Shown here piece by piece: positions 25,009 to 36,823 of a DNA stretch of 47,928 nucleotides (the stretch's first letter is position 1; every line of letters begins with the position of its first letter). The notes below the pieces were generated by a model, which was not told where the DNA came from, ran no database searches, and saw only the letters and a list, made by a program, of their open reading frames with translations. The stretch is from IMG/VR virus record IMGVR_UViG_2541047918_000003; one strand, written 5' to 3'. This DNA is from a virus. Its lineage: Duplodnaviria; Heunggongvirae; Uroviricota; Caudoviricetes. The translations under genes and the position numbers were made by a program.

Positions 25009-25014
25009 GCATGT

Positions 25015-25044
25015 AAAAAGGCCCCAACACATGTGCGTGGGGCC
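25015..25044 (-). terminator. minus-strand intrinsic terminator downstream of the tRNA cluster
   Basis: GGCCCCA/TGGGGCC stem followed by T5 on the minus strand. Confidence 0.45.
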
Positions 25045-25283
25045 TGAGAGTATACATGGTTTCAGTCAACTGCATGGTGCCGGGTGCCTCCCGGTGAATT
25101 CAGTACCAGCACCTGAATCCGCGATTATCCCATATACCTACTCGCTGATTGCCCCTCCGCACAGGGGGATTCACCATGCCAGTTTCTTTTAACAAACTCC
25201 CCGCAAAACAGACAACTGTCAACCGTCTGAATTGTGAGACATTTAAAAAAAGGCCCGCAAAAGCGAGCCGGGAAAAATAAGTC

Positions 25284-25360
25284 TGGCGCGTTGTACTGGA
25301 TTCGAACCAGTGACCGATTGCTTAGAAGGCAATTGCTCTGTCCGGTTGAGCTAACAACGC
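25284..25360 (-). tRNA. argO: tRNA-Arg (anticodon UCU)
   Basis: 77 nt; cloverleaf; anticodon loop CTTCTAA; T-arm GGTTCGAATCC; encoded CCA. Confidence 0.85.
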
Positions 25361-25373
25361 AGGGTACAGATAA

Positions 25374-25450
25374 TGGACCGCCATCGAGGACTCGAACCCC
25401 GCGCAACCAGCTTCGAAGGCTGGCGCTCTATCCTGATGAGCTAATGGCGG
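25374..25450 (-). tRNA. argN: tRNA-Arg (anticodon UCG)
   Basis: About 77 nt; anticodon loop CTTCGAA; T-arm TTCGAGT; CCA end; exact 5' end uncertain by 1 nt. Confidence 0.75.
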
Positions 25451-25457
25451 TATGTGA

Positions 25458-25533
25458 TGGTGGCCCTTGCTGGATTTGAACCAGCGACCTGGCGATTATG
25501 AGTCGCTCGCTCTCACCACTGAGCTAAAGGGCC
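25458..25533 (-). tRNA. ileZ: tRNA-Ile2 (anticodon CAU, lysidine type; would also score as Met)
   Basis: 76 nt GGCCCTTTAGCTCAGTGG...CTCATAA...GGTTCAAATCC...GGGCCACCA; close to E. coli ileX as recalled. Confidence 0.85.
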
Positions 25534-26003: not shown

Positions 26004-26384
26004 TTACTTTTTTAGCAGCCAGTCGTCCATCTCCAGTCTTACCCCCAGCACAGACAAACATCCGTCAATAAACCCTTCGGCTATCTGCATCTCAATTCGT
26101 ATTGCTTTTTCGCTTTTCTTTCTCGTCCTGGCTATCTGTCTTTTTGATATTCGCAACAAATAATGAGCAATGAGAAGCGAATACTCCTCAGGTTTTTTCT
26201 GCTTCAGACGAGCAAGACAGTTTTCAATGATAAGTCCGTCATCATCGCAGCAGGCCGGACGTGGTTTAGTGGCAGATGGTAAAAGTCCTTTGAATCCGGC
26301 AGCGATCGGAGAATAGTCCACCCCGGTGTTACCACTTGCAGCCCATGCCCCCCAGCGTTCAAGAACCATCTGAATATCACGCAT
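26004..26384 (-). CDS. late antiterminator Q (small Q family, QuuD-like)
   Basis: Starts MRDIQMVLERWGAWAA...; ATG at 26384 with GGAGAAAG upstream; the track ORF starts at an upstream TTG. Confidence 0.7.
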   Translation of the reverse strand: MRDIQMVLERWGAWAASGNTGVDYSPIAAGFKGLLPSATKPRPACCDDDGLIIENCLARLKQKKPEEYSLLIAHYLLRISKRQIARTRKKSEKAIRIEMQIAEGFIDGCLSVLGVRLEMDDWLLKK

Positions 26385-26401
26385 CAACTTTCTCCACAAA
26401 A

Positions 26402-31342: not shown

Positions 31343-32205
31343 GGGCGAACCTCCTTGTCAGAACCATTCAGCCTAGAATCAACAAGTGCAGCGCCAAAAA
31401 CAGCATCACCAACACGGTCGTACAGTTTGCTAGCCAGCGGAGATTCAACGGCCTTAAGCATTGGATAAAGCTGGCTTGTCCAGATTTGATGGATTTCACG
31501 CAAATGCAGGTATACGCCTCTGGCGTTTCGTGCGACAGCTGACATATCAGACGCATCGGCACCTGATAAACTCTTCTCCATCAGGTTAAAGGCGTTGATG
31601 TATGCCTCTTTGAACCGGGCAGCACGTTTACCCGTGAAACCCATAGCAAGAAATGCAAAACCGTCTCGTGTGATTTGATAGCAAGGGAGCTTGCGTGTAC
31701 CGCCGTTCGGTTGATTTACCGAAATCGATGTCTCCGCAAAATTGCGGGCACAAAACTCTGGAGAACAATCCAAAATGCGAATCTTTTTCAGAACATCGTC
31801 ATGACGTTTAGAGAAGAAGTCAGCAACAGCCAAAGAAGATGTAACAGCCTGACCATCAACGATGGCAATTTCAGGTTGAGAGAGGGTTGGGAGAGTAGTC
31901 ATAGTGACAGCCCCGGTAGTCAGTTTTTTAGAAAACTCACCACATGGGACGCCAATCACAGAGGTGGTGAGACGTACAGGGTTGGCGTTACCGGAGACTA
32001 CCGAACCCGGCCCGACCGAAGTCGGCCCTGTACGCCCCACCATAATTTGGGCGTAGCAATGCTCATGACACGAAAAAACCGCATGAGCGCGGTTATGCTC
32101 AGTAATCAATTTCAGGACGCCAATCCCGGCACCCGCTTTATAAGGTGCGGAGACAGTGTAACGTCCCGAAATTGCAGAATCAATATTTGGTCTTGAAATG
32201 ATCAT
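31339..32205 (-). CDS. Rha-family phage regulatory protein; start uncertain (alternative ATG at 31902)
   Basis: Central motif AIVDGQAVTSSLAVADFFSKRHDDVLKKIR; no strong RBS at any candidate start. Confidence 0.55.
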   Translation of the reverse strand: MIISRPNIDSAISGRYTVSAPYKAGAGIGVLKLITEHNRAHAVFSCHEHCYAQIMVGRTGPTSVGPGSVVSGNANPVRLTTSVIGVPCGEFSKKLTTGAVTMTTLPTLSQPEIAIVDGQAVTSSLAVADFFSKRHDDVLKKIRILDCSPEFCARNFAETSISVNQPNGGTRKLPCYQITRDGFAFLAMGFTGKRAARFKEAYINAFNLMEKSLSGADASDMSAVARNARGVYLHLREIHQIWTSQLYPMLKAVESPLASKLYDRVGDAVFGAALVDSRLNGSDKEVRP

Positions 32206-32314: not shown

Positions 32315-33021
32315 CACCGCTGCCAACCAATAACCTGAAATAACCCCATTTTCGGGTGATACCAGCGAGTCCCTCGCGGTTCTGCTTCCTCCATAACCCG
32401 ATAAAAAGCAGCCATAAACGGTTCCACAGCAACAATTGCGCGACGTGACAACAATCCGTCCGGCGTCATGAACTCATGGGTGTCTGTAGGAATCTGATAG
32501 GCGTTCACCAGATTGCGGCATTTATCATCTGACAAACCGGTTTTTGCTTTCAGTTGGCGATATCCGGCATAGCCCTCACGAATAGTGCCCTTTTTAATTT
32601 GCTCGACTGTTTCAGCAACGTGGCTGACTTTTTCTTCCACCTGAGTGATCCGTTTCTGCTGACGAACTGCTTCAAGAGCCATCGCGGCAACCATTTCGAT
32701 TTCGCTCATTGGCTTACGGATCTGTTCTTCCAGTTCGCGCCAGCGATCTACCAGGCGAGCAGTGAATTCAGGACAGAGCTGTGCGACGACAATGATGCTG
32801 TCGCGCTTACCTTGTTCTCCTTCAAACAGGTAATGCTCATATTGAACTTTAAAACCTAAGTTATTGATTCTTTCGGAAACCTCAATTTGAGGAGACCGGA
32901 CAACGCCACCTTTGGCTAATGTTTCAATAGTGCGTTTCACATTGTCATGACGTTTACCCACCAGCTCTGCAATTTCAACGCTGGTCATGGATGCTTTGCC
33001 GTTAAAAATTGCGGTGTTCAT
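32314..33021 (-). CDS. Rha-family phage regulatory protein, antirepressor-like
   Basis: 235 aa; N-terminal motif TSVEIAELVGKRHDNVKRTIETL; AGGAGA RBS. Confidence 0.65.
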   Translation of the reverse strand: MNTAIFNGKASMTSVEIAELVGKRHDNVKRTIETLAKGGVVRSPQIEVSERINNLGFKVQYEHYLFEGEQGKRDSIIVVAQLCPEFTARLVDRWRELEEQIRKPMSEIEMVAAMALEAVRQQKRITQVEEKVSHVAETVEQIKKGTIREGYAGYRQLKAKTGLSDDKCRNLVNAYQIPTDTHEFMTPDGLLSRRAIVAVEPFMAAFYRVMEEAEPRGTRWYHPKMGLFQVIGWQR

Positions 33022-33245
33022 TGTTGGTCTCCTGTGGGCTTGTCATCTTCTGTATTCGCTAGACTTGGGTGTGTATATGGAATGCTCGTATCCAGATGAC
33101 AAAGAATGGCAACATCCTCCGGAACACCTCGCGTTTTCCACTTTCCAACACCTTGACTGCCACGAGGCCTTCCTTTCTTTGGGAACCTGCGACCAATAGC
33201 GGCATTGGTTTTAAATTGAATTTTTAATATTTCATAAAGGGTCAT
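33018..33245 (-). CDS. possible Cro-position early regulator
   Basis: 75-aa basic ORF, first on the minus strand after the operator region; weak RBS; no clear helix-turn-helix. Confidence 0.3.
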   Translation of the reverse strand: MTLYEILKIQFKTNAAIGRRFPKKGRPRGSQGVGKWKTRGVPEDVAILCHLDTSIPYTHPSLANTEDDKPTGDQQ

Positions 33246-33356
33246 TCTTTAGTCTCACACCAGATACTTTGTTATCCAACGATGTTAACCACAGGAACCC
33301 AAAGTATCAAGAAATTCTGTTACTTTAGTATCAACAGCCATGAGAGGAGAAGAAAA
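33246..33356. promoter_or_regulatory. right operator/promoter region (OR-like)
   Basis: 111-bp divergent region between the cro-like gene and cI with repeated GTATCAA/TTGATAC-type half-sites. Confidence 0.5.
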
Positions 33357-34013
33357 ATGAAGTCTTTAGGTGAACGTCTCATCAACGCACGGCAAAAAGC
33401 TGGGTTAACACAAGATGCGTTGGCTAAAAAAGCTGGGGTCACCAGAGTTGCAATCAGTAAAGCCGAGCAAGGCCTTACAAAAAGTTTCAACGGTGACACC
33501 CTTTTTAAAGTTGCAGCTGCACTGCAGTGTTCACCGCAGTGGCTTCAGAACGGAGATGAAAAAGATAAGCATTGGGAAAATAATGTTAAGAGCTGCCCAC
33601 AGAGAGACACAGCATACTCTTACCCTGTAATTAACTGGGTTCAGGCAGGATTATTCGCAACTTCTGGTGATGACTACAACATGTATGATCAGGATAATTG
33701 GAGGCATTCTGTAAAATACGCTGGTGAGAGGGGGTTCTGGCTGGAAGTGCACGGAGACTCAATGACTTCGCCCGTAGGAATAACATTTCCTGAAGGAATG
33801 TCGATCCTTGTCAACCCAGATAAAGAAGTTTTTTCAGGGTGTTACGTCATCGCCAGAAAAAAATCTACCAATGAAGCAACATTCAAAAAATATATTTCTG
33901 AAATGGGAAAGGCGTTTCTAAAGCCCCTTAATCCACAATATCCAATCATAGAAATGGACAATGATTGCGAAATAGTAGGTGTTGTGGTTGATGCCAGGTG
34001 GGATATTTTCTAA
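33357..34013 (+). CDS. cI: CI-like repressor (XRE helix-turn-helix plus S24 LexA-like peptidase)
   Basis: MKSLGERLINARQKAGLTQDALAKKAGV... helix-turn-helix; C-terminal peptidase-like domain; AGGAGA RBS. Confidence 0.85.
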   Translation: MKSLGERLINARQKAGLTQDALAKKAGVTRVAISKAEQGLTKSFNGDTLFKVAAALQCSPQWLQNGDEKDKHWENNVKSCPQRDTAYSYPVINWVQAGLFATSGDDYNMYDQDNWRHSVKYAGERGFWLEVHGDSMTSPVGITFPEGMSILVNPDKEVFSGCYVIARKKSTNEATFKKYISEMGKAFLKPLNPQYPIIEMDNDCEIVGVVVDARWDIF

Positions 34014-34029
34014 CCAGACACAAAACACA

Positions 34030-34100
34030 AAAAGAAACCAAAGTATCAAAAATCACTTGCCACACCTTGATACCTTAGTTACCATAAAACAAAGTTCGTA
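34030..34100. promoter_or_regulatory. left operator/promoter region (OL-like)
   Basis: Inverted GTATCAA ... TTGATAC pair matching the half-site seen in the OR region. Confidence 0.4.
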
Positions 34101-34116
34101 ACTGAGGTATCATCTC

Positions 34117-34533
34117 ATGATCAATAAAGCTACAACTCTTGACTGTCTCGAAGAACTGAAAAACCTCGGCAGCCTCATTACACTAATAGCAAAAGCAACA
34201 CCTGATGCTACGCTCTCTAGCGATATAGAGTCATGCGCAGGACTGGCATGGGATATGACAAATAGCATATCCAGAAAGCTATCGTCAGCAATGCTTTTAC
34301 AGAACAAAAATTCTGCAATCAACAACCGTCTTCGCACCCAACGCGAAGCCTGCGGCTTAACAACCGCCGAACTCGCCAGGCTGCTCGATCTCGATGAAGA
34401 AATTATCATCCAGTGGGAGAGCGGAGAGTATGAACCAACTATCAGTATGCTTATCCCACTGGCAAATATTCTTGGCTGCGATCCGATGTGGCTGTTAACT
34501 GGCGAAACGGCAGCAAAGGATATCTGCGCATGA
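34117..34533 (+). CDS. helix-turn-helix (XRE-type) protein with unknown N-terminal domain
   Basis: 138 aa; C-terminal GLTTAELARLLDLDEEIIIQWESGEYEPTISMLIPLANILGCDPMWLL; GAGGT RBS; first gene after the OL-like region. Confidence 0.6.
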   Translation: MINKATTLDCLEELKNLGSLITLIAKATPDATLSSDIESCAGLAWDMTNSISRKLSSAMLLQNKNSAINNRLRTQREACGLTTAELARLLDLDEEIIIQWESGEYEPTISMLIPLANILGCDPMWLLTGETAAKDICA

Positions 34534-34772
34534 AAAACTGTGATGCTTACCATATTTGTCTCATTGGTGAATTGCTTGATTTCATACAAAAAAGCACTGC
34601 GCGCAATAATAAAAATATAACATATGGTGATCTGGTAATAATTTCAGAGGATATAAAGAGCATCGCTCTTAAATTCAAGAGCGACGCGAGTATTGATGAC
34701 GCTATTTACGCTTATCTTGCGAAAATAATTGACGGATCCAAAATCCAGCCTCTGGATGAACCTCGTCAGTGA
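34530..34772 (+). CDS. hypothetical protein (80 aa)
   Basis: ATGA overlap with the upstream gene; AT-rich. Confidence 0.4.
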   Translation: MKNCDAYHICLIGELLDFIQKSTARNNKNITYGDLVIISEDIKSIALKFKSDASIDDAIYAYLAKIIDGSKIQPLDEPRQ

Positions 34773-34929
34773 AAAACTCCTTTGATGAAGATGAGAACTG
34801 CTTCATAAACTTTACTTTATCTTCAGGTGAAACTACCTGACGAATTAATGCGGAGATAGCAACTTTGTGCCAAATTAATTCTTTTTTGAGTTCTGAAATC
34901 TCTTTTTCGAGTTGCTCTGCGTTAATCAT
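34702..34929 (-). CDS. hypothetical coiled-coil protein (75 aa), convergent with 34530-34772
   Basis: Strong GGAGG RBS 5 nt before the ATG at 34929; overlaps the neighbour's 3' end by 71 nt. Confidence 0.4.
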   Translation of the reverse strand: MINAEQLEKEISELKKELIWHKVAISALIRQVVSPEDKVKFMKQFSSSSKEFFTDEVHPEAGFWIRQLFSQDKRK

Positions 34930-35108
34930 TTATCCTCCATTGAGAGCTGAATTGAAAATGGGGACCAACACGCGGCTACGTGTGGTCGTGCGCCGGACAC
35001 GGATAAGCATCCGGTAACTGATTATCAATCATTGCGGAAACAGTCTCAATATGAAAACACTTCTGAGACTCGCTATATAGCAGGACATATAAGTCAGCTG
35101 AGGAAGCC

Positions 35109-35474
35109 ATGAAAAAGTTCGAAAACATAACTGTTCTCCATGTTGATGACTTTGATTATACAAACCCGGAACTTCTCCCGGAGGTTGTAAAGGCAATAGA
35201 TGTTGCCGATATAGTGATTAGAGGAAAGAGAATTGTCAAAAACAGGCTCGCATGCACTTCAGAAGCAATGACAGAAACAACCTCACAGCAAGATAATTAC
35301 GAAGGCATTTGTCTGGAGCCTGATTCATTTGCGGTAAATGTTTATCATTTATTGCATGCAACACAGGTATTACATATGTCCAGTAATCACGAAACGAAAA
35401 CACTCGGCAGCGAAATTCTGAATTTTGCATGTGAGTATGCAAAAACTGCTGCCGAAAAAGAATTAGCGCAATAA
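35109..35474 (+). CDS. hypothetical protein (121 aa)
   Basis: GAGGAAG RBS; possible hairpin plus T-run after the stop. Confidence 0.5.
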   Translation: MKKFENITVLHVDDFDYTNPELLPEVVKAIDVADIVIRGKRIVKNRLACTSEAMTETTSQQDNYEGICLEPDSFAVNVYHLLHATQVLHMSSNHETKTLGSEILNFACEYAKTAAEKELAQ

Positions 35475-35669: not shown

Positions 35670-36029
35670 ATGACACATGAACCCATTAATACATATCGTC
35701 GCCGTATAGCTGTTGCAGCACTCCATCGAATAAAACGTAAAACAGGTGGTGATCTGCTTATTGTTGACCTTCTGGATGGGAACATTACGACCATAGAAAT
35801 AACAGAACAGTTTATAAACCAGTTGCTGTTGCGCTTTGAAGATATTACCCGTGGTGAATTGGGTCGAGTGGAGGGTGAAACAGAATTCCGAACTGCATAC
35901 CAGAATGCCATCGGGATTAATCAACATACTGAATACCAGGCTGAAACCGGAAAGTTAATTATAGACAACCTTTTACAAGAGGTTATTGATTACGCGAAAG
36001 AAAAATATATCAGCGGAGGAATTAACTGA
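35670..36029 (+). CDS. hypothetical protein (119 aa)
   Basis: First gene of a four-gene overlapping operon. Confidence 0.5.
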   Translation: MTHEPINTYRRRIAVAALHRIKRKTGGDLLIVDLLDGNITTIEITEQFINQLLLRFEDITRGELGRVEGETEFRTAYQNAIGINQHTEYQAETGKLIIDNLLQEVIDYAKEKYISGGIN

Positions 36030-36244
36030 TGGCTAATTTATCCCCTGTATCTGTTGTGCACGAAAAAGTGCAGATCGTTATGACAATTGAAAATGGCCAG
36101 GTAACAGATGTCTGCAAAGTCCGCGATGGAGAGCTGATTGCCAGCATGGATACATTCATATGGCTGGCAGAAAGAGCGGGGTATCAGATAACAGCACCTG
36201 CTCAGGAGGAAACCAGTGACATTAACAGCAACGCGAATTCCTGA
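36029..36244 (+). CDS. hypothetical protein (71 aa)
   Basis: GGAGG RBS; start overlaps the upstream stop. Confidence 0.45.
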   Translation: MANLSPVSVVHEKVQIVMTIENGQVTDVCKVRDGELIASMDTFIWLAERAGYQITAPAQEETSDINSNANS

Positions 36245-36434
36245 GTGGGTCCACCAGCAGGCGTTGCTGGTCCTGCGGCGGTACAGATGCCGACGTATAT
36301 TCCCGCATCGGATACAGCGCAACGGATATCTCAGTCTGAAGGTTAACCGTCGCTGGCGGCTGTTATCGAAAGACGACGGCCGGAACTGGGAAATAATGAG
36401 TCATGAACGTTATTCGGGAGAAATAAAGAAATGA
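36216..36434 (+). CDS. hypothetical basic protein (72 aa)
   Basis: GTG start with AGGAGG RBS; Arg-rich; overlaps both neighbours. Confidence 0.4.
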   Translation: MTLTATRIPEWVHQQALLVLRRYRCRRIFPHRIQRNGYLSLKVNRRWRLLSKDDGRNWEIMSHERYSGEIKK

Positions 36435-36823
36435 TCGACAACCGCACCGCCAGCGCCATTGACCAGGCATTACAGAAACATGATACACCCGTCGGCCCGT
36501 TATTTTTTGTAACACATCACGGAAGAACAAAAAAATGCCTCACTCGAAAAACGGCAATTCGTTACCTGGCATTCTTTATGACCACCCGCGCTTTTGAACG
36601 TTCAGGATTCCGACAACGCCATCCTGACAAGCGTTTTATCTTCAACGGGAATGAAATATGGAAACGTGGAGAATCAACCACAGAGTACACCCGCGCACAC
36701 CAGCGAACAATCAGACGACTGCGCAGACTCATCGCCAGGAAACAGTATACAGAAAAATGGTTCAGAAAATATGACACATGGAGCGCCGGATATTACGAAC
36801 TGATGGCAACAAAACCATTCTGA
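36431..36823 (+). CDS. hypothetical basic protein (130 aa)
   Basis: ATGA overlap with the upstream gene; Arg/Lys-rich C-terminus. Confidence 0.5.
   Translation: MIDNRTASAIDQALQKHDTPVGPLFFVTHHGRTKKCLTRKTAIRYLAFFMTTRAFERSGFRQRHPDKRFIFNGNEIWKRGESTTEYTRAHQRTIRRLRRLIARKQYTEKWFRKYDTWSAGYYELMATKPF

Follow-up and report, generated by a model that had tools for sequence, protein, structure and literature searches.

A helix-turn-helix regulator gene in the N position of a phiP27-like prophage, followed by a candidate antisense accessory gene with a structured leader

Layout of the locus

The stretch of DNA analysed here (the window; 47,928 nucleotides (nt), Caudoviricetes, IMG/VR virus record IMGVR_UViG_2541047918_000003) is a lambdoid prophage close to phiP27 in which a Q gene is present and an N gene is absent. 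We analysed the start of its early-left region, where a gene for an XRE-type helix-turn-helix (HTH) protein, here called gene 1, is followed by two small convergent open reading frames (ORFs), ORF80 on the plus strand and ORF75 on the minus strand. Between positions 33047 and 35667 the window is 93.5% identical to phiP27, an Stx2e phage, and 100% identical to a prophage of Escherichia coli ZH063.

The order cro, operators, cI, operators, PL places the gene at 34117 in the position that N occupies in phage lambda. Of the operator motif GWAACYNARGTATCA the window contains 8 copies where 1.3 would be expected, and these are concentrated on the OR side and the OL side. Three operator copies between 34034 and 34112 confirm the OL-like sites that an earlier reading of the DNA, made without database searches (the sequence-only reading), had placed ahead of the HTH gene. 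The Q-like late antiterminator mentioned in the same reading was recovered as a PF06530 match (26004-26399, minus strand, E 1.6e-52). On the PR side lie Rha/Ant genes, accompanied by isrK and C4 RNAs, as well as replication genes and this Q antiterminator. The plus-strand early-left operon ends in excisionase and integrase. The features of the locus, with lengths in amino acids (aa) or base pairs (bp), are the following.

33018-33245, minus strand: cro-like gene
33282/33357-34013, plus strand: LexA/S24-type cI gene
33295-33333: OR-side operator cluster, three sites of the motif GWAACYNARGTATCA between cro and cI
34034-34048, 34068-34082 and 34098-34112: three OL-type CI operator sites, same motif as between cro and cI
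34057-34085: PL-like promoter TTGCCA-17-TACCAT (promoter scan), overlapped by the OL sites
34117-34533, plus strand: gene 1, first gene after the CI operators, XRE protein of 138 aa (HTH_3, phrog_4739)
About residues 1-66 of the 138-aa protein: type A module, two helices
34505-35021: mosaic cassette of 517 bp with the tail of the HTH gene, ORF80, ORF75 and leader (alignments)
34530-34772, plus strand: ORF80, 80 aa, ATGA-coupled to the HTH gene (phrog_23054)
34660-34687, minus strand: 12-bp hairpin 14 nt past the ORF75 stop, then UCUUUAUAUC, inside ORF80 (terminator scan)
34929-34702, minus strand: ORF75, 75 aa, small helical protein of unknown function (phrog_20080; PGAP WP_000606214.1)
34930-35015, minus strand: structured 5′ leader of ORF75, 86 nt (conservation and folding)
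35049-35021, minus strand: sigma-70-like promoter TTGAGA-17-GATAAT (promoter scan, 10/12 positions)
35109-35474, plus strand: next conserved early-left gene, 121-aa ORF with a type B module at residues 69-115 (phrog_5451, phrog_4587, phrog_4836)

The gene in the N position codes for an HTH protein

Pfam HTH_3 was found over residues 72-126 of the 138-aa protein (E 2.5e-11, 43.9 bits against a cut-off of 23), and residues 1-65 gave no Pfam match. An AlphaFold2 model with 19 homologues as input (predicted local distance difference test score, pLDDT, 80.5) has two long N-terminal helices (residues 2-27 and 31-78) leading into a five-helix domain. In Foldseek this domain superposed on the c2 repressor of P22 (3jxb_C) with a root-mean-square deviation of 0.8 Å over 63 columns, at 32% identity and a target TM-score of 0.90. 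434 Cro and the controller protein C.AhdI also superpose on it, and by model and superposition the protein has the five-helix fold of Cro and c2.

An arginine-rich RNA-binding motif is absent, as MINKATTLDCLEELKNLG... is without arginine in the first 50 residues and predicted to form a helical hairpin. The boxA octamer CGCTCTTA occurs once in the window (34664; 1.13 expected), with no boxB-like hairpin next to it; as a lone chance-level match without a partner in the PR operon it was rejected as a lambda-type nut site. Judged by its modelled fold, the gene 1 product is a DNA binder and not an N-type antiterminator. Thus, the proposal that the N slot holds a C-terminal XRE HTH instead of an arginine-rich antiterminator was borne out by the HTH_3 and fold matches.

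Like N of lambda and Nun of HK022, gene 1 is the first gene downstream of OL/PL, is read away from cI and lies in a lambdoid genome with Q. It differs from both by the Cro/CI-type fold of its product and by lacking the arginine-rich motif and a nut boxA/boxB pair. None of the characterised early regulators matched the HTH protein; the best named match was DicA (NF007257), with 46 bits against a cut-off of 101 and in the HTH region only. The likeness to P22 c2, 434 Cro and DicA thus consists of the close superposition on P22 c2 and this sub-threshold DicA match. Nevertheless, the 138-aa protein is not the immunity repressor, since a separate LexA-type cI lies upstream. Furthermore, its HTH is C-terminal behind a novel helical module, and its relatives have two tandem HTH domains.

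A modular regulator family occupies the N slot

The homology and structure searches that had been suggested from the sequence revealed, besides the P22 c2-like fold, a large unnamed and uncharacterised E. coli prophage family, which is present on thousands of contigs. The closest relatives of the 138-aa protein have 215-230 aa with the two tandem HTH domains, while the 138-aa form has a single HTH and a C-terminal end resembling the end of the second repeat of the two-HTH forms. The first HTH is nearly invariant through the family, whereas the N-terminal modules differ. At all loci inspected, with at least three different immunity regions, the regulator gene is the first after a cI-type repressor. 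Identical operators were found combined with different N-modules, and the N-module is therefore not the determinant of immunity specificity.

With residues 1-68 as query, an exhaustive HMMER search of 1.8 billion representatives yielded only 8 proteins at E ≤0.001, some of them stand-alone proteins of 65-72 aa. The stand-alone type A proteins P0136 (65 aa) and P0133 (67 aa) are each encoded by the first gene after a cI-type repressor, with the same kind of operators, and each is followed by a 63-aa type B protein. No HTH is attached to these type A (65-67 aa) and type B (63 aa) proteins (locus L204, 3001-3392; locus L206, 3001-3398), and a stand-alone N-module is the first gene after cI at loci L204-L207.

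The type B module of the 121-aa ORF is 45% identical (E 3e-10) to residues 24-70 of P0084, the N-module of the commonest regulator of 230 aa. The 121-aa ORF is also 52% identical to the 66-aa gene following P0084 in locus L139, where the 230-aa regulator is directly followed by this 66-aa paralogue of its own N-module (48% identity). PGAP annotates only the last 68 codons of the 121-aa ORF; the full ORF is ATGA-coupled to the regulator in locus L142. A distant homology of types A and B was considered and rejected (hhalign probability 0.2%). Since A and B occur both stand-alone and as N-terminal fusions, the slot is built of two small helical modules that are either free or fused to XRE. The N-module may mediate dimerisation or partner binding.

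A mosaic cassette follows the regulator gene

Strain SF-088 has about 157 nt in place of 34505-35021, and the regulator there has a different 166-aa end. L142 likewise lacks the cassette; here a 218-aa regulator is ATGA-coupled straight to the 121-aa gene. Among 5426 complete E. coli genomes the cassette was found in 54, in clades that are about 9% apart in DNA. According to the absence from SF-088 and L142, it shows the presence and absence among collinear relatives that is expected of a moron. The junction ...GGGGATACTTGCGCATGAAAAA is identical in L142 and in the cassette-bearing loci, and divergence sets in right after ATGAAAAA. As the same junction starts the 121-aa gene in L142, the start of ORF80 and its coupling belong to the slot and not to a cognate pair. 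The remainder of ORF80 runs through the DNA on the 3′ side of the ORF75 unit.

ORF75 and its flanking elements

A 75-aa minus-strand gene with a strong GGAGG ribosome-binding site (RBS), overlapping the 3′ end of the coupled ORF by 71 nt, had been read from the sequence, and our analysis agrees: the GGAGG (34938-34934) lies 4 nt ahead of the ATG, and the overlap extends over 34702-34772, that is 71 nt. In frame, the variable sites of ORF75 comprise 10-11 synonymous and 14 non-synonymous ones, whereas either alternative frame of the minus strand has 1-4 synonymous sites; this distribution lends moderate support to ORF75. Outside the overlap ORF75 has a pairwise omega of about 0.2, and its codon-usage log-likelihood is +13.6. 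Single-base changes in two different A/T runs (~34875-34905) shift the frame in phiP27 (L001/L027), L013 and L203, and an IS1 element interrupts ORF75 in L011. The frameshift in phiP27 explains why the phiP27 record annotates only a shortened L09. Altogether, ORF75 is very probably a real gene.

In the putative ORF75 promoter, 5 nt separate the end of the −10 element from position 35015, where leader conservation sets in. The −35 element lies in the left arm of an inverted repeat, AGTCTCA-N15-TGAGACT (35042-35070), which is also present in the cassette-less SF-088; there the promoter would be directed at the 3′ end of the regulator gene. We also considered a CI operator in this promoter region: GTAACTGATTATCAA (35012-35026) resembles the OL site at 34098-34112, but its spacing is one base short and it fails the pattern within two mismatches. 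The hairpin after ORF75 has a folding energy of −19.2 kcal/mol (z −3.3), and its palindrome is kept in all variants. Its predicted structure makes it probable that the hairpin acts as a weak intrinsic terminator or stabilises the ORF75 mRNA at its 3′ end.

The sequence features slightly favour the view that ORF75 is an autonomous antisense moron cargo. Like sieB (lambda, P22, Rac) and the HK97-type morons, it is a small gene with its own putative promoter and hairpin, lies opposite to the early-left operon and is present or absent among close relatives, and expression in the prophage state would be expected. ORF75 is unrelated to these genes in sequence, and it differs from them by a structured 5′ leader that is common to about 14 other cargo families. 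A comparable shared leader was not found described for sieB or the classical morons.

A structured leader shared by unrelated small genes

The leader of ORF75 is predicted to form two 5′ hairpins, followed by a CUCCAUU-type segment complementary to the Shine-Dalgarno (SD) region, which is able to pair with the RBS AAUGGAG. It is the best-conserved part of the region and was found with 81-98% identity in 1047 of the 5426 complete E. coli genomes, with no annotated feature over it. About 159 copies of 86-91 nt (e.g. L005, 2501-2593, and L008, 1267-1352) precede some 14 unrelated families of small ORFs (57-110 aa). No known function was recognised among these cargo families, apart from one borderline GhoS match. 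In several unrelated upstream contexts the conserved stretch starts 5-6 nt downstream of a −10-like hexamer and stops at the ATG; three other genomic contexts show the same spacing to the leader start with a different −10-like hexamer. Of 93 distinct contexts, 83 have their longest flanking ORFs, on either side, encoded opposite to the cargo.

In O157:H7, where its cargo is an unrelated gene of 69 aa, the leader lies about 250 nt ahead of DicF and dicB. O104 prophages likewise carry a full leader with cargo about 250 nt upstream of DicF/dicB, and K-12 Qin has a leader remnant of 35 nt between ydfC and dicF (L135, 19103-19136) that comprises the first hairpin and lacks a cargo gene.

Several observations point to an RNA structure of the minus strand. 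Helix 2 has 4 pairs changed on both sides compared to 0.6 ± 0.7 after shuffling, and only 1 of 500 shuffles reached the observed number. The U·G pairs at 7-18 and 39-44 and the U·G intermediates of compensatory changes fit only the minus-strand RNA and would be A·C mismatches on the plus strand. Folding was also better for the minus strand (z −2.2 and −2.6) than for the plus strand (−0.2 and −1.8). None of the 4227 Rfam families matched the leader in 34000-35300 of the window at E up to 1, and in the O157 copy the leader was likewise unmatched by Rfam although the adjoining DicF was detected. With SD-sequestering 5′ leaders such as RNA thermometers and riboregulators it has in common a conserved anti-SD segment downstream of stabilising 5′ hairpins. 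It differs by being portable across unrelated ORFs, by standing outside Rfam and by having no known ligand or signal.

ORF80 and the convergent overlap

For the 80-aa gene that had been described as coupled by ATGA, the ATGA (34530-34533) and the length were confirmed; the start was corrected to 34530 instead of 34531, because the 34531 frame gives stop codons. A competing account holds that only ORF75 is a gene and that ORF80 is a by-product of a cassette placed behind a pre-existing coupled start, its open frame being fortuitous or kept for ribosome-following or polarity protection. The identity of the ORF80 start region with the start of the 121-aa gene in L142 favours this account, and neither PGAP nor the phiP27 record calls ORF80.

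Conservation of the reading frame argues against a by-product. ORF80 is intact at 80 codons in all of the 18 unique variants, whereas two independent frameshift events broke ORF75 in three of the same variants. In clades about 9% apart in DNA both ORFs keep their lengths (80 and 75 codons). When 34505-35021 was shuffled 2000 times with dinucleotides preserved, an ATG-initiated ORF of at least 75 aa appeared in 213 shuffles, and such ORFs on both strands in just 6. An SD-like motif (AAGGA, GGGGA or TGGAGA) is retained 9-10 nt upstream of ORF80 in three diverged tails of the upstream gene. Also difficult to reconcile with a by-product is the codon-usage log-likelihood of +8.8, which is 2.7 standard deviations above the off-frame values (−21 ± 11; real genes in frame, 17 ± 8).

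The substitution data are divided. Between the main clades pairwise omega of ORF80 is about 0.2 in its own frame only, contrary to what a by-product would suggest. In the ORF80-only part of all variants, on the other hand, the variable sites are distributed 7:6:10 on codon positions 1:2:3, and synonymous counts are alike in all six frames, as the by-product account would have it. Changes within the overlap (3 synonymous and 8 non-synonymous in each frame) do not discriminate between the frames. As a whole the substitution pattern weakly suggests that ORF80 is coding.

The predicted structure is similarly ambivalent. AlphaFold2 proposed three amphipathic helices for ORF80 (pLDDT 69), which speaks for a protein, with a disordered tail falling in the overlap. 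The search against the Protein Data Bank (PDB) gave no fold match with E below 7, and this absence counts for a by-product. No match to ORF80 was found in Pfam, NCBIfam or PADLOC. A search of 5.8 billion proteins returned homologues of ORF80 and ORF75 only at 71% identity or more. Scans of species-representative genomes revealed no distant homologues of either, and a metagenome scan added only variants that were 80-100% identical. According to this, ORF80 homologues are absent outside the cassette, which again favours the by-product account. Nothing on these genes turned up in literature searches for phiP27, the dicBF operon, the Stx2e paper and the RefSeq protein accessions.

Taken together, ORF80 is probably translated, and that it is a selected functional protein has even or slightly better than even chances; that it is a mere by-product appears doubtful. 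Other explanations for ORF80 were rejected. It is not the missing second HTH (138 + 80 = 218), since it has no similarity to the two-HTH forms of 218 aa and three helices are predicted instead of five. A −1 frameshift extension of gene 1 lacks a slippery heptamer before the stop. A stand-alone copy of type A or B is not supported by hhalign (probabilities of 0.4% and 0.2%), and the 121-aa protein was found to be unrelated.

Alternative circuits

A circuit like that of SinR and SinI, in which stand-alone modules (the 121-aa type B protein, perhaps ORF80) pair with the N-module of the regulator and switch its DNA binding on or off, is conceivable but unlikely. It would fit that types A and B are free proteins encoded by the first two operon genes in L204-L207, that both also occur as N-terminal fusions to HTH, and that the L139 regulator is adjoined by the 48% identical paralogue of its own N-module. 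In the window, however, the regulator is of type A and the stand-alone protein of type B, with no detectable homology between the two types, and ORF80 is related to neither. The likeness to SinR/SinI lies in an XRE HTH that is joined to a helical hairpin, with stand-alone hairpin paralogues encoded alongside. In this prophage family the module is N-terminal and the interaction purely hypothetical; no homology to SinR or SinI was found, although no search was aimed at it.

The suggestion of a toxin-antitoxin-like module formed by the HTH gene and its coupled neighbour was not supported; for a plain regulator pair, the other suggestion made from the sequence, the data speak neither for nor against. 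Such a module, or a regulator/partner pair, would have the N-module neutralise ORF80 and the HTH autoregulate, as in MqsA-type systems, and we consider it very improbable. In its favour, a partner-binding N-domain followed by a C-terminal XRE HTH is the domain order of MqsA, the two genes are ATGA-coupled, ORF80 was never seen without an upstream HTH gene, and there are weak HTH matches to antitoxin families. As far as MqsA itself is concerned (TIGR03830), the match reached 25 bits against a cut-off of 61.8 and was confined to the HTH; the CxxC zinc motifs are absent from the sequence. PADLOC, searched for known defence or toxin families, returned generic HTH matches only.

ORF80 has no toxin match in Pfam, NCBIfam, PADLOC or PDB and no profile similarity to the type A or B modules. 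Nor does it co-vary with the N-module: the regulators ahead of it are of two forms, 138 aa and 152 aa, whose N-terminal sequences differ, and the N-module of the window is common without ORF80, e.g. in SF-088 and L142. The coupling site, being shared with the unrelated 121-aa gene, is inherited from the slot. The locus thus resembles MqsA-type and other XRE antitoxins in having an N-terminal domain that does not bind DNA, a C-terminal XRE HTH and a small coupled neighbour; it differs in lacking a zinc ribbon, and ORF80 is downstream and no recognisable toxin. A type I system with convergent 3′ overlap (the txpA/RatA type) was set aside, since small hydrophobic peptides are encoded by neither ORF.

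A separate ParE-like toxin gene (36216-36434, plus strand; PF24732, E 1.6e-17), 1.5 kb downstream, overlaps an upstream 71-aa gene (36029-36244). By its sequence matches this pair (36029-36434) is likely a more credible toxin-antitoxin pair of the early-left operon than the HTH gene and ORF80, and its presence is a further point against the latter.

Finally, it is highly improbable that the 86-nt element acts on the plus strand in the PL transcript, as a put- or nut-like antitermination element, a processing site or a small RNA: the phage is without N, the element is located within the PL transcript and about 250 nt upstream of DicF in Qin/Rac-type prophages, and K-12 Qin retains the remnant without cargo, but the conserved stretch has the predicted start of minus-strand transcription and the cargo ATG as its exact limits and includes the GGAGG, the U·G pairs and intermediates as well as the better folding assign it to the minus strand, and the sole boxA-like octamer in the window is at chance level.

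Proposed function of the locus

We read the locus as the head of a CI-repressed PL-type operon of an N-less phiP27-like prophage into which an accessory cassette has been inserted, and we assign a probability of about 55% to this reading. In a lysogen, CI at OL would keep PL silent, and ORF75 would be transcribed alone from its own promoter, like morons of the sieB type. Upon induction or infection, once CI repression is lifted, transcription from PL would yield the regulator and, by coupling, ORF80. As the HTH is nearly invariant across immunity types, we infer that the gene 1 product is a sequence-specific DNA-binding transcription factor which acts on a site common to many prophages. PL transcription would run head-on through the ORF75 unit, and polymerase collision together with duplex RNA would reduce ORF75 expression. 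ORF75 transcripts that extend beyond the putative weak terminator would be complementary to ORF80 and to the regulator mRNA at its 3′ end, and the leader may add a further layer of control by hiding the ORF75 RBS. Expression timing and transcriptional interference are inferred, as are the DNA target and the part played by the N-module.

Some observations weigh against this reading. The ORF75 promoter is a consensus match only, and the hairpin after ORF75 has a poor U-tract. The frameshifted alleles imply that ORF75 is dispensable or that some of the records are in error. A regulator-binding motif shared at PL across immunity types was not found by comparison of 9-mers. Between cI and the PL region of the window (34014-34033) there is no terminator hairpin, so that PRM-type read-through into the HTH gene would be possible in lysogens. 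In addition, helices 1 and 3 of the leader (anti-SD/SD) are nearly invariant, which is partly due to the choice of loci by patterns containing them.

Beyond the operon of this prophage, we tentatively propose that E. coli lambdoid prophages have a new, portable cis-regulatory RNA in this leader, which, stabilised by its 5′ hairpins, would sequester the SD sequence and provide one post-transcriptional control for about 14 unrelated accessory genes set antisense in early operons, and that the N slot is defined by A/B modules, free or XRE-fused. Leader control could respond, for example, to temperature, to a common trans-acting factor or to head-on early transcription together with RNase III.

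Other features of the prophage

C4 antisense RNA (82 bits) and isrK (59 bits) are found in tandem at 31960-32148 on the minus strand, just upstream of an Ash/Rha-type antirepressor-like gene; this arrangement is a second immunity layer of the PR operon like that of P1/P7 immI. Downstream of Q, in the position of a late-promoter leader, STnc100 small RNA (140 bits) and three tRNA genes are located (25009-25533, minus strand). A basic protein of 130 aa (36431-36823, plus strand; phrog_1886, function unknown) has an arginine-rich stretch, RTIRRLRRLIARK, close to its C-terminus. At the cI/PL junction a clear hairpin with a T-run is present in L204 and relatives with other repressors (L139 and L006 compared).

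Significance

XRE regulators, morons and structured leaders are known kinds of parts. The occupancy of the N slot by A/B modules plus XRE, a leader common to about 14 cargo families and the convergent overlap appear to be undescribed in the libraries and literature searched. The locus is also a test case for annotation, as current pipelines drop one ORF of the convergent 71-nt gene overlap.

Shiga-toxin converting phages are among the N-less lambdoid prophages that are related to phiP27. In these prophages the N slot is held by a modular, uncharacterised family of DNA-binding regulators, the N-module of which is autonomous and can be the first early gene alone. Accessory genes are plugged in antisense behind one common structured leader, which about one fifth of the complete E. 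coli genomes contain. If this leader is regulatory, it would control a whole class of prophage cargo genes, which are candidates for exclusion or host modification. If the view of the N slot as a site of A/B modules is true, it would point to a previously undescribed early lysis-lysogeny circuit.

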